Positions 4,514 through 52,530 of a stretch of DNA of 64,000 nucleotides are shown here, in pieces (the stretch's first letter is position 1; every line of letters starts with the position of its first letter). The DNA is from Escherichia coli (GTDB lineage: Bacteria; Pseudomonadota; Gammaproteobacteria; Enterobacterales; Enterobacteriaceae). A model generated the notes under the pieces. The model saw only the letters and a program-made list of their open reading frames with translations. It searched no databases and was not told where the DNA came from. Made by a program: the position numbers and the translations under genes. The stretch lies in NCBI RefSeq assembly GCF_003334765.1, contig NZ_QOWT01000015.1. The stretch is one strand, 5' to 3'.

Positions 4514-5665
4514 ATGGCAGCTTCAACGTTCTTTATTCCTTCTGTGAATGTCATCGGCGCTGATTCATTGACTGATGCAATGAATATGATGGCAGATTAT
4601 GGATTTACCCGTACCTTAATTGTCACTGACAATATGTTAACGAAATTAGGTATGGCGGGCGATGTGCAAAAAGCACTGGAAGAACGCAATATTTTTAGCG
4701 TTATTTATGATGGCACCCAACCTAACCCCACCACGGAAAACGTCGCCGCAGGTTTGAAATTACTTAAAGAGAATAATTGCGATAGCGTGATCTCCTTAGG
4801 CGGTGGTTCTCCACACGACTGCGCAAAAGGTATTGCGCTGGTGGCAGCCAATGGCGGCGATATTCGCGATTACGAAGGCGTTGACCGCTCTGCAAAACCG
4901 CAGCTGCCGATGATCGCCATCAATACCACGGCGGGTACGGCCTCTGAAATGACCCGTTTCTGCATCATCACTGACGAAGCGCGTCATATCAAAATGGCGA
5001 TTGTTGATAAACATGTCACTCCGCTGCTTTCTGTCAATGACTCCTCTCTGATGATTGGTATGCCGAAGTCACTGACCGCCGCAACGGGTATGGATGCCTT
5101 AACGCACGCTATCGAAGCATATGTTTCTATTGCCGCCACGCCGATCACTGACGCTTGTGCACTGAAAGCCGTGACCATGATTGCCGAAAACCTGCCGTTA
5201 GCCGTTGAAGATGGCAGTAATGCGAAAGCGCGTGAAGCAATGGCTTATGCCCAGTTCCTCGCCGGTATGGCGTTCAATAATGCTTCTCTGGGTTATGTTC
5301 ATGCGATGGCGCACCAGCTGGGCGGTTTCTACAACCTGCCACACGGTGTATGTAACGCCGTTTTGCTGCCGCACGTTCAGGTATTCAACAGCAAAGTCGC
5401 CGCTGCACGTCTGCGTGACTGTGCCGCTGCAATGGGCGTGAACGTGACAGGTAAAAACGACGCGGAAGGTGCTGAAGCCTGCATTAACGCCATCCGTGAA
5501 CTGGCGAAGAAAGTGGATATCCCGGCAGGCCTACGCGACCTGAACGTGAAAGAAGAAGATTTCGCGGTATTGGCGACTAATGCCCTGAAAGATGCCTGTG
5601 GCTTTACTAACCCGATCCAGGCAACTCACGAAGAAATTGTGGCGATTTATCGCGCAGCGATGTAA
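4514..5665 (+). CDS. yiaY: Iron-containing alcohol dehydrogenase
   Basis: 383-aa ORF with Fe-ADH signature region ([14 protein letters not shown]). Confidence 0.9.
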
Positions 5666-5829: not shown

Positions 5830-7368
5830 ATGACCAATAATCCCCCTTCAGCACAGATTAAGCCCGGCGAGTATGGTTTCCCCCTCAAGTTAAAAGCCCG
5901 CTATGACAACTTTATTGGCGGCGAATGGGTAGCCCCTGCCGACGGCGAGTATTACCAGAATCTGACGCCGGTGACCGGGCAGCTGCTGTGCGAAGTGGCG
6001 TCTTCGGGCAAACGAGACATCGATCTGGCGCTGGATGCTGCGCACAAAGTGAAAGATAAATGGGCGCACACCTCGGTGCAGGATCGTGCGGCGATTCTGT
6101 TTAAGATTGCCGATCGAATGGAACAAAACCTCGAGCTGTTAGCGACAGCTGAAACCTGGGATAACGGCAAACCCATTCGCGAAACCAGTGCTGCGGATGT
6201 ACCGCTGGCGATTGACCATTTCCGCTATTTCGCCTCGTGTATTCGGGCGCAGGAAGGTGGGATCAGTGAAGTTGATAGCGAAACCGTGGCCTATCATTTC
6301 CATGAACCGTTAGGCGTGGTGGGGCAGATTATCCCGTGGAACTTCCCGCTGCTGATGGCGAGCTGGAAAATGGCTCCCGCGCTGGCGGCGGGCAACTGTG
6401 TGGTGCTGAAACCCGCACGTCTTACCCCGCTTTCTGTACTGCTGCTAATGGAAATTGTCGGTGATTTACTGCCGCCGGGCGTGGTGAACGTGGTCAATGG
6501 CGCAGGTGGGGTAATTGGCGAATATCTGGCGACCTCGAAACGCATCGCCAAAGTGGCGTTTACCGGCTCAACGGAAGTGGGCCAACAAATTATGCAATAC
6601 GCAACGCAAAACATTATTCCGGTGACGCTGGAGTTGGGCGGTAAGTAGCCAAATATCTTCTTTGCTGATGTGATGGATGAAGAAGATGCCTTTTTCGATA
6701 AAGCGCTGGAAGGCTTTGCACTGTTTGCCTTTAACCAGGGCGAAGTTTGCACCTGTCCGAGTCGTGCTTTAGTGCAGGAATCTATCTACGAACGCTTTAT
6801 GGAACGCGCCATCCGCCGTGTCGAAAGCATTCGTAGCGGTAACCCGCTCGACAGCGTGACGCAAATGGGCGCGCAGGTTTCTCACGGGCAACTGGAAACC
6901 ATCCTCAACTACATTGATATCGGTAAAAAAGAGGGCGCTGACGTGCTCACAGGCGGGCGGCGCAAGCTGCTGGAAGGTGAACTGAAAGACGGCTACTACC
7001 TCGAACCGACGATTCTGTTTGGTCAGAACAATATGCGGGTGTTCCAGGAGGAGATTTTTGGCCCGGTGCTGGCGGTGACCACCTTCAAAACGATGGAAGA
7101 AGCGCTGGAGCTGGCGAACGATACGCAATATGGCCTGGGCGCGGGCGTCTGGAGCCGCAACGGTAATCTGGCCTATAAGATGGGGCGCGGCATACAGGCT
7201 GGGCGCGTGTGGACCAACTGTTATCACGCTTACCCGGCACATGCGGCGTTTGGTGGCTACAAACAATCAGGTATCGGTCGCGAAACCCACAAGATGATGC
7301 TGGAGCATTACCAGCAAACCAAGTGCCTGCTGGTGAGCTACTCGGATAAACCGTTGGGGCTGTTCTGA
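5830..7368 (+). pseudogene. aldB: Aldehyde dehydrogenase B, interrupted by an in-frame TAG at 6646-6648
   Basis: A continuous 513-codon frame is split into ORFs 5692-6648 and 6670-7368 in the same frame; ALDH catalytic Glu motif LELGGK sits immediately before the stop and the Cys motif [12 protein letters not shown] follows it. Confidence 0.85.
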
Positions 7369-11213: not shown

Positions 11214-11559
11214 TTCACCGGTGGATGTCGGTGCGGCTGGTGCTCCGTCGTAATGCCACAAAGGTTGTTGCTCTGGATTGCTCTGTTCATACCGGGAACC
11301 TGGCGTCTGAATCAGGATCTTATGGCTGAACAATCCCTTGCCTTCAAATGTCGTAAATGGCGCATCGGCGGGCAGCAACAGGTTATGCAGTGACTCGACG
11401 TTGTCGGCCTGCTCCATGCAATACGGTTTAATGACGTTGGCTATTTCCGGCAGATTTTTCAGAAACATACTGGTTTAACGCCAGCAGCGTGGAAGCGGCG
11501 TTACAGCAAGGAACATATCAATTCGTAGTGCCGGGGCGATGAAGCCCCGGCGTGAGGGA

Positions 11560-13109: not shown

Positions 13110-13764
13110 GCGCACCTCCCCAGATAGCGTCGATTTGCGCATGGAAATCGCCAGCCACTTGCGCCGGATTTGCCGCGCCTGCCAGTGCCCGCCCGGCAAT
13201 AAACGCTTTCACGCGGATATCTTTAAACAGCGGCAGGTCAGCAGGGGTAATCCCGCCAGTAATGGAAAGCTCAAGGCCGATATCTGAAAGCGCCTTCATG
13301 CGTGCCAGATCGGCTTCGCCCCACTGTTGCCCGCTGGCCTGTGCATCACGACCGCGATGATAAATGGCCTGCCGCACGCCAATACGATGCCAGTCGCGGG
13401 CGTCGTCCAGCGTCCAGTTACCGAACAGCTCTATCTGAATTTCACCCCCGCAGCGTTGTGCCATTGCGTGGCCTTTTTCTACCGTCGCGAGCGGCGCGGC
13501 GCAGATGATGGTCATCCAGTTAGCGCCTGCGCCAAACGCCTGTTGCGCGAGCGTTTCACCAGCGTCGGCGACCTTCCAGTCAGCAACGATGATTTTGTCC
13601 GGGCACTGTTCGCGCAAGGCTTTCACCGCGCCAAGCCCTTCGTTTAAACAGAGAATGGTGCCCGCTTCGACGATATCGACGCTGTCTTTTAACAGCGTCA
13701 CGTCGCGCTGCGCGGCTTCAAGTGATGAGTGGTCGAGGGCCAGTTGCAGAAGTGGTCGGCTCAT
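13102..13764 (-). CDS. sgbH: 3-keto-L-gulonate-6-phosphate decarboxylase
   Basis: 220-aa ORF; AAGGAG RBS upstream of ATG at 13762-13764. Confidence 0.92.
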
Positions 13765-15256
13765 AATGTGTGCTCCTTAATGCGGGCGTGAAAGCCCTGA
13801 AGTGCGGCAATGAGATGCTGATAACGTTGATATTTTTTTGGTAAAGCTGATGGGCGGTCATATCTGGCAGCAGGGTGCGCACCGGGTGTCGCAAGTCACG
13901 TTGGGCTTCGCTGAAGTTGTGATAAACCCCGGTGCCGACGCGGGCGGCAAGGGCCGCACCAAAGCAGCCGGTTTCTTCCACCTGCGGCAGCTCGATACGC
14001 AGACCGCTGACGTCCGCCAGCATTTGCATCCAGACATCGGAGTGCGCCGGGCCGCCAGTGACGCGTAGGGTGTGAACATCAGTAAAACGTTCGCGCATTC
14101 GGTTGAGGTGGGTCATATGGCTGAACACCACCCCTTCATAGATGGCCTGCAACAGGTGCGCGCGGGTGTGAATGGCCTGCATCCCGTAGAAACCACTGGT
14201 CATCTCGAGTCCGGCGTTGCTGCCGTACAGGAACGGCAGGAAAAAGAGATCGCCCCCAGCCTTCGGCAAGCTGGCAACGGCCTGATTGATCTCATCAAAC
14301 GAGATTTCTCCCCACTGTGCGGTAAACCATTCGAGGTTGCCGGAAGAGGTAGGGCTGGCTTCGTGAACGATAAATTCACCATCGTTAACGTAGCGACCAT
14401 AGACATACGGATGCGCTTCACCGTCACGTAAACCGCGGGTTATGCCGCTGGTCACCGCCCAGGTCCCCATCACCGCATTGAGGGTAAATTCGTCTTCGAT
14501 CCCGGCGCAGAGTGCGGTGGAAACCACATCAAACAGGCCGCCAACAACGGGCGTACCCGCTTTCAGACCGGTCAGGGCGGCTGTCTGAGCGGTGATCTCC
14601 CCGCAGATTTCGGCAGATCCGACAACAGGCGGCAGGGCGTGATTGATTTCAGCGATCCCCAGCCAGTCGGTGAGGCACGGGTCATATTCCCCAAGACTCA
14701 TGTTGTAGAGGTTGGACTCGGAAATATTGCTCTCTTCACAGCCTTTGACGCCAGTTAAACACCAGCGCAGGTAGTCGTGCGTCATCATCACGCAGCCAAT
14801 TTGCGCGTAGCGTTCTGGTTCGTGCTCTTTCAGCCAGCGTAACAGCGACACCGGATGCCCGGTCCACAAGGTTTGTCGGGTCAGCGGGTAGAGTTTTTCC
14901 GGGATGCCATCTTCCTGCCAGCGACGAACGATTTCCATCGCCCGGCGGTCCGAGGACAAAATAGCATTCCCGAGCGGTTTGTCGTTTTTATCCAGCAAAA
15001 ACAAGCCCTTTCCCTGTGCGGAGATGCCGATACCGACAATTTGTTCCCCGCTAACACCAGAATGAGTAAGCAGGGCGCGAATGACAGCCATGCAGCATTG
15101 CCACAGTTCTGCCATATCGCGCTCTGCCCAGCCTGGCTGCGGGCTTAATGCGCACAGCGGCAGGCGCTGCACGCCTGCCTCCCGGCCTTCGCGGTCATAC
15201 AGCCCGGCTTTCAGCCAGCTACCGCCACAATCTAACCCCAGCCAGTATTGCGTCAT
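13718..15256 (-). CDS. lyxK: L-xylulose kinase, apparently frameshifted at the C-terminus (canonical stop would be at 13761-13763)
   Basis: FGGY-kinase N-terminus (GLDCGGSWLK); ORF is 512 aa rather than 498; tail after LYQK is low-complexity read-through into sgbH; an alternative frame gives a clean ...[25 protein letters not shown] stop. Confidence 0.85.
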   Translation of the reverse strand: MTQYWLGLDCGGSWLKAGLYDREGREAGVQRLPLCALSPQPGWAERDMAELWQCCMAVIRALLTHSGVSGEQIVGIGISAQGKGLFLLDKNDKPLGNAILSSDRRAMEIVRRWQEDGIPEKLYPLTRQTLWTGHPVSLLRWLKEHEPERYAQIGCVMMTHDYLRWCLTGVKGCEESNISESNLYNMSLGEYDPCLTDWLGIAEINHALPPVVGSAEICGEITAQTAALTGLKAGTPVVGGLFDVVSTALCAGIEDEFTLNAVMGTWAVTSGITRGLRDGEAHPYVYGRYVNDGEFIVHEASPTSSGNLEWFTAQWGEISFDEINQAVASLPKAGGDLFFLPFLYGSNAGLEMTSGFYGMQAIHTRAHLLQAIYEGVVFSHMTHLNRMRERFTDVHTLRVTGGPAHSDVWMQMLADVSGLRIELPQVEETGCFGAALAARVGTGVYHNFSEAQRDLRHPVRTLLPDMTAHQLYQKNINVISISLPHFRAFTPALRSTHYEPTTSATGPRPLIT

Positions 15257-40055: not shown

Positions 40056-40288
40056 ATCGCTAAATAATACAGCAACCTTTAATAATCTTCTGCTGAATAA
40101 AGATTATCTCATATATTAATTTTATGAGATTTTTTTAGGATTATATCAAGGAGAAGAAACAAACTTATTAAGCTAGAATAGCCACGGGTGCTTGAGACTG
40201 TTTGTCTCAGGTATTCACCGAAAGGCAGACAGAGAAAAGCCCCACCTGACTATAAATCAAAGTTGGAAATCAACACAGGAGGCTGGGA

Positions 40289-40441
40289 ATGCCGCAGAAA
40301 TATAGATTACTTTCTTTAATAGTGATTTGTTTCACGCTTTTATTTTTCACCTGGATGATAAGAGATTCACTGTGTGAATTGCATATTAAACAGGAGAGTT
40401 ATGAGCTGGCGGCGTTTTTAGCCTGCAAATTGAAAGAGTAA
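40289..40441 (+). CDS. hokA: Hok-family type I toxin (50 aa)
   Basis: Below the ORF-track cutoff; AGGAGG RBS at 40276-40281; translation MPQKYRLLSLIVICFTLLFFTWMIRDSLCELHIKQESYELAAFLACKLKE is a Hok/Gef peptide with one TM helix. Confidence 0.85.
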   Translation: MPQKYRLLSLIVICFTLLFFTWMIRDSLCELHIKQESYELAAFLACKLKE

Positions 40442-52196: not shown

Positions 52197-52362
<166 letters not shown>

Positions 52363-52422: not shown

Positions 52423-52530
52423 AATCCTCTATCACCGACCAAATTCGAAAAGCCTGCTCAACGAGCAGGCTTTTTTGCATCTGCAGCTCATGAGGATGAG
52501 AACCTCCGGGGGCAGGGAGGTTCGACTCGA
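52423..52530 (+). repeat. Direct repeat copy 2 (tRNA-Pro 3' fragment plus terminator copy)
   Basis: Perfect 108-bp match to 52255-52362; the six-frame ORF 52156-52680 shows the same 37-residue peptide twice. Confidence 0.9.

Follow-up and report, generated by a model that had tools for sequence, protein, structure and literature searches.

The aldB locus

The window analyzed here, a 64,000-nucleotide stretch of Escherichia coli DNA, covers the selAB-yiaY-aldB-yia-xyl-glyQS-dpp-bcs region of the chromosome. Its aldB frame is broken by an amber codon, and the features relevant to this lesion, all on the plus strand, are the following:

4514–5665, plus strand: yiaY (Fe-dependent alcohol dehydrogenase), the intact neighbor upstream of aldB
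5830–7368, plus strand: interrupted aldB (aldehyde dehydrogenase B) frame, a predicted pseudogene or null allele, placed by translation and with 1 mismatch in 1539 nt against K-12
5830–6648, plus strand: N-terminal ORF, codons 1–272 plus TAG, with the cofactor-binding part and ELGGK; predicted truncated product
6631–6645, plus strand: ELGGK motif, residues 268–272, placed by motif position
6646–6648, plus strand: in-frame amber codon TAG, Ser273*, with the causal SNP C>A at 6647
6649–7368, plus strand: C-terminal remnant, codons 274–512 plus TGA, probably untranslated or at best weakly re-initiated
6739–6756, plus strand: GEVCTC active-site motif, residues 304–309, with Cys307 at 6748–6750, placed by motif position

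Translation of 5830–7368 yields 272 sense codons, a TAG, 239 sense codons, and the natural TGA, for a total of 513 codons, and the ORF list splits this frame into one ORF ending at 6648 and another spanning 6670–7368. A sequence-only reading of the window had described precisely such a frame, open throughout its 513 codons except for the TAG at 6646–6648, and the translation agrees. The same reading proposed that a serine codon had become a stop through one base change. Alignment to K-12 MG1655 bears this out: aldB differs at one position in 1539 nt, namely 6647, where the window has A instead of C, turning codon 273 from TCG (Ser) into TAG. Because a single base separates the two genes, the Ser-to-amber change is directly shown. 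It had also been stated that aldehyde dehydrogenases (ALDHs) conserve a serine after LELGGK, which holds for the two solved structures closest to AldB, 9fm9 and 9koi; both keep LELGGKSPNIF and read LELGGKSPNIFF at the break site. Finally, both halves of the gene had been judged intact, with the Cys active-site motif downstream of the stop. GEVCTC is indeed found at residues 304–309, and, codon 273 aside, the window aldB is identical to the intact alleles of K-12 and many other genomes. The 31-mer that spans the mutation site in its TAG version is GGCGGTAAGTAGCCAAATATC.

The gene is orthologous to K-12 aldB, as seen from synteny and near-identity. Both aldB fragments match PF00171 among precomputed Pfam hits, and the restored full-length AldB hits ALDH structures at E-values between 3e-249 and about 1e-100.

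Carriers of the amber codon

The TAG is rare. An 81-mer centered on it was compared with the 5,171 complete E. coli genomes in which the region is present and matches none of them exactly, and a scan of JGI metagenomes with a degenerate TAG pattern returned 0 matches. Carriers were found through an exact-protein look-up, in public assemblies, of the 272-aa product and the 231-aa C-terminal ORF. Contigs of GCA_965137835.1 are 100% identical to the window over 12–13 kb, TAG included, as are a contig of SRR1122539 over 7.3 kb and a contig of ERR14335420 over 3.0 kb. The TAG is also present in JNRS01000019.1 and JNRT01000025.1, in three metagenome assemblies (ERZ28623675, ERZ28615333, and ERZ27245172), and in the Logan assemblies ERR10900580 and SRR11277197. 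GenBank records of the 231-aa ORF bear the source name “Escherichia coli 3-020-07_S4_C2”. The colonies S4_C2 and S4_C3, represented by JNRS and JNRT, come from a single Tanzanian infant's six-month stool sample and are both typed as ST5617, O131:H8, phylogroup B1 (Table S1 in Richter et al. 2018, PMC6222053). Contigs L006–L012 and L041–L046 were considered as extra carriers and rejected, as they end at codon 272–273 before its second base or have a base other than A there; with the contig edge at this codon, they are artefacts of the exact-protein look-up and hold no information on the TAG.

The earlier reading left two options, a real null allele or a sequencing error, and the carriers decide in favor of the former. 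If the TAG were an error of sequencing or assembly, the true codon would be TCG and aldB would be intact, a view to which the single base change and its absence from every complete RefSeq E. coli genome lend some color. However, the same TAG appears in many datasets, independently sequenced and assembled by different submitters in different years, including two separately sequenced colonies and several metagenomes, and a systematic error would not produce a clone-specific distribution. On the strength of the independent assemblies that share the TAG, we rejected this explanation and consider it very improbable. An engineered or laboratory amber allele was similarly ruled out by the nature of the carriers, which are infant-stool isolates and metagenomes. 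The TAG occurs in all members of each carrier lineage and is missing from relatives with identical local sequence; because it is constant within clones and absent from locally identical relatives, it is an inherited mutation rather than an artefact. Thus, the aldB amber allele is real and heritable, and it is present in wild gut strains.

Age of the lesion and nearest relatives

The complete genomes nearest to the window are those of strains H3 (Mexico) and EH09-18-41 (Laos), and the window lineage is nearly identical to K-12 in this region. Position 6647 is C in MG1655, H3, EH09-18-41, and MARGA_3, and A in the window; the in-frame stop is therefore derived relative to the intact orthologues of the closest relatives. 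Only two positions in the 64 kb, 6647 and 16985, set the window apart from all its relatives. The latter is a C>T change in yiaN (minus strand, codon 184) that converts ACG to ACA and is synonymous (Thr184). It is shared with GCA_965137835.1 and found in 0 of 3,746 matching complete genomes. Co-import of 16985T was considered and ruled out: as no other genome carries this base, it arose de novo, and it offers a useful second marker for the window clone.

With two private SNPs in 64 kb and no secondary lesions in aldB, which otherwise equals intact alleles, the lesion is young, in keeping with the recent origin first suggested from the sequence. A young lesion also means that the intact frame downstream of the stop needs no special explanation.

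A second background and the origin of the homoplasy

The same TAG is found on a second haplotype that is ~1% divergent, with about 174 SNPs in 13 kb relative to the window. This second background is the ST5617 O131:H8 clone, which is also present in several metagenomes. Its carriers have genes for a GH127 protein, an MFS transporter, and an AraC regulator between yiaT and sgbE, which the window and K-12 lack. Within aldB, the two haplotypes differ at R86R, V228E, R335R, C464C, and A472A, flanking the TAG on both sides, and on each background the gene otherwise corresponds to intact alleles of many complete genomes. An identical SNP on backgrounds ~1% apart is unusual for a random neutral lesion and leaves room for selection, a mutational hotspot, or gene conversion.

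The nearest flanking markers lie at 6512 and 6834, so the shared TAG reflects either a C>A change that happened twice, independently, or a conversion tract shorter than 322 bp. A stretch of this size without markers does not exceed the spacing of SNPs nearby, and sequence alone therefore cannot choose between recurrence and conversion; for the same reason, a long identical tract was dropped as a candidate signature of recombination, the 322-bp interval being ordinary and uninformative. We favor independent C>A recurrence, which we estimate, to an order of magnitude, to be several-fold likelier than transfer, because the collections span very many lineages of E. coli, few genomes could donate the TAG, and any imported tract would have to be free of markers.

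That the TAG arose once and moved between backgrounds by a short gene-conversion tract is, in our judgment, rather unlikely, and it would bear on the origin of the homoplasy only, not on the null phenotype. The identical base change on two haplotypes speaks for such a transfer. So does a 600–740-bp patch in yiaY at which SRR11277197 differs from the other TAG contigs of the second background, from which it follows that short recombination imports occur here, on the relevant timescale. However, the tract must fit wholly between 6512 and 6834, donors are very rare (0 of 5,171 complete genomes), and the other private SNP, 16985T, arose de novo rather than by import.

Recurrence at a hotspot could in principle be templated. 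With the wild-type C, the site forms a small GGCG...CGCC palindrome, which the mutation disrupts. A search for k-mers of at least 8 bases containing the mutant base found no direct or inverted copy within 2 kb, and templated mutagenesis from a quasi-palindrome or repeat was rejected as the hotspot mechanism on this ground. The same amber change occurs in two unrelated lineages, each in several hosts, and IS1 and Mu-like insertions break aldB elsewhere (described in the last section). Rather than neutral decay, this pattern could reflect parallel selection, with inactivation of aldB being of advantage in the human or animal gut, or a true site-specific mutational hotspot. We regard such a reading as improbable.

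Predicted product and loss of function

The TAG at codon 273 falls between ELGGK (268–272) and the nucleophile Cys307. Here, we take Glu268 of ELGGK to be the ALDH general base (PROSITE PS00687) and Cys307 to be the ALDH nucleophile (PROSITE PS00070). Both motifs are encoded in aldB, but the TAG keeps them off one polypeptide. Ribosomes would terminate via RF1 after Lys272, releasing a 272-aa product that should retain the cofactor-binding region and the general-base Glu268 and would lack Cys307, the remainder of the catalytic domain, and the C-terminal oligomerization strands. This product is predicted to be inactive because the stop precedes the nucleophile. We infer that it has no aldehyde dehydrogenase activity and that the strain is an aldB null. 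From its sequence, aldB is an ALDH by descent, the product of which is not expected to be a functional member of the family.

AldB is a stationary-phase enzyme. It is not essential, and other aldehyde dehydrogenases serve as backup, so its loss would be tolerated; the amber allele is presumably neutral or near-neutral. In the O157 strain Sakai, aldB is induced as cells enter stationary phase.

Loss of function could be averted if the amber codon were read through, either by a suppressor tRNA encoded elsewhere (supD-like, inserting Ser, or supE-like) or by a near-cognate tRNA in the UAG-C context, giving useful amounts of full-length AldB. Several points count for readthrough: the UAG-C context is regarded as comparatively weak for termination, natural amber suppressors have been reported from environmental coliforms, the frame beyond the stop is undamaged and free of secondary lesions, and the allele persists in clones from several hosts. 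Against this, an intact downstream frame is equally expected from the recency of the lesion, given only two private SNPs in 64 kb, and wild-type E. coli usually shows a basal readthrough far below 1%. We found no suppressor tRNA within the 64-kb window, where the sole tRNA is tRNA-Pro(CGG), which also weighs against readthrough. Lastly, no other lineage conserves a TAG at codon 273, as a programmed recoding site would require. Useful readthrough is accordingly quite doubtful.

Programmed recoding, whether by readthrough, Sec, or Pyl, is excluded because the stop is not conserved: the TAG is confined to two clones, and codon 273 is a sense codon in all other E. coli genomes. Within the window, we likewise found no dedicated machinery for decoding UAG; the neighboring selA and selB serve UGA/SECIS decoding, not UAG.

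The two pieces might also act together as a split enzyme, with fragment 1–272 and a re-initiated fragment 282–512 assembling into an active complex. The break lies near the boundary of the cofactor-binding and catalytic parts, and possible restarts follow the TAG at GTG 6670 and ATG 6673 (Met282), the latter 25 nt past the stop. However, no Shine–Dalgarno sequence is evident before 6670 or 6673, nine conserved residues (SPNIFFADV) would be lost, and no lineage conserves such an organization. To our knowledge, there is also no precedent for a split ALDH. We give the split enzyme almost no weight.

Taken together, the aldB lesion is very probably genuine, heritable, and recent: in a natural E. 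coli lineage, the Ser273 codon has mutated to an amber stop, and the resulting allele is a predicted null.

Other features of the window and related contigs

Several further features of the window and of related contigs are listed here as separate observations. In lyxK (L-xylulokinase; minus strand, ORF 13718–15256), a run of 7 T at 13833–13839 replaces the 8 T of K-12. The shorter run shifts the reading frame in the last part of the gene; the product is 512 aa long instead of the 498 aa of K-12, and its altered C-terminus overlaps sgbH. H3 and EH09-18-41 share this T7 run, and PGAP labels the gene ‘frameshifted’ there; the window 81-mer over the run is found exactly in 61 of 3,730 complete genomes. 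At 40262–40264, just upstream of hokA (40289–40441), the IS150 of K-12 MG1655 is absent and hokA/sokA is uninterrupted, so the hok toxin–antitoxin locus may be in its intact, pre-insertion state in the window. This IS150 is also missing in H3 and is present in EH09-18-41.

Two identical 108-bp direct repeats, 168 bp apart, lie at 52255–52362 and 52423–52530. The first overlaps the 3′ end of proK, the tRNA-Pro(CGG) gene at 52197–52273. The repeats correspond to the RtT sRNA region annotated by PGAP in K-12, where they also occur.

The gap between yiaT and sgbE, at about 11240–11425, holds only remnants in the window, as in K-12; in relatives, two partial genes are annotated here, one of the AraC family and one hypothetical. 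In ST5617-type strains and in MARGA_3, the same gap contains about 5 kb of intact genes (GH127 glycoside hydrolase, MFS transporter, and AraC regulator), from which it follows that the window shares the K-12-type deletion. A different arrangement is seen in five more divergent, Escherichia-like metagenome contigs (L031, L032, L042, L044, and L045), which are 95–96% identical to the window aldB and have a Fic-domain gene directly upstream of their own aldB. In L031 and L032, sgbE directly follows aldB and the yiaW-yiaT block is missing. Some of these five divergent scaffolds contain N gaps.

Significance and annotation

The aldB amber allele is an ordinary one: it arose recently and naturally, in a dispensable gene, and is predicted to abolish function. 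It is already in public assemblies, annotated there as two ALDH fragments. Gene callers report a 272-aa PF00171 protein (GenBank CAM3617035.1) and a 231-aa C-terminal ORF starting at 6673 (P0001; KDZ41968.1, KDZ47736.1, and CAM3617058.1). In the strain of the window, aldB should be annotated as a pseudogene and not as two ‘aldehyde dehydrogenase family’ genes, as is done in the public records KDZ41968.1, CAM3617035.1, and CAM3617058.1. The SNP at 6647 can, in addition, serve to mark two commensal clones that are in circulation.

The homoplasy is the sole point of wider interest; there is a modest chance that it reflects selection favoring the loss of aldB. If loss-of-function alleles of aldB were enriched species-wide, aldehyde detoxification by AldB would look costly or useless in the gut.

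Comparison with known systems

Our literature search on the accessions, on aldB pseudogenes or nonsense alleles, and on aldB loss returned nothing relevant. Other disruptions of aldB are found among the assemblies retrieved. IS1 insertions lie at the equivalent of about 6664–6672 in GCA_037172925.1 (L016/L029) and GCA_014219555.1 (L023), and the end of a Mom-encoding, Mu-like prophage lies at the equivalent of about 6628 in ERR8652026 (L019/L034). These are independent inactivations, insertional in nature, whereas the window carries a point mutation. The clustering of the IS1 and prophage breaks within about 25 bp of the TAG is probably a search artefact, because the look-up was keyed on the same 231-aa C-terminal ORF, which also makes their frequency uninformative.

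Among the classical natural amber polymorphisms of E. coli is rpoS(Am), in which codon 33 is affected in some K-12 stocks. Like aldB(Am), it is a single-base UAG in an otherwise intact, non-essential gene, segregates among close strains, and is potentially suppressible. The rpoS alleles have a documented selective rationale in the GASP and SPANC trade-offs, whereas we know of no phenotype or selective benefit of aldB loss.

Among solved structures, the aldehyde dehydrogenase 9fm9 and the NAD+-dependent aldehyde dehydrogenase ExaC (9koi) align over nearly the full length of AldB, with E-values of 3e-249 and 1.7e-232, respectively. Unlike the window product, they are intact enzymes, from other organisms, and were used only to place the break relative to the motifs.

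The closest known system is K-12 AldB itself (b3588, WP_000183980.1), an NADP-dependent, RpoS-regulated acetaldehyde dehydrogenase encoded at the same locus with the same synteny, selAB-yiaY-aldB-yiaWV. The genes are identical at 1538 of 1539 nt and the proteins are the same outside codon 273, where K-12 has TCG and the TAG of the window truncates the frame before Cys307.
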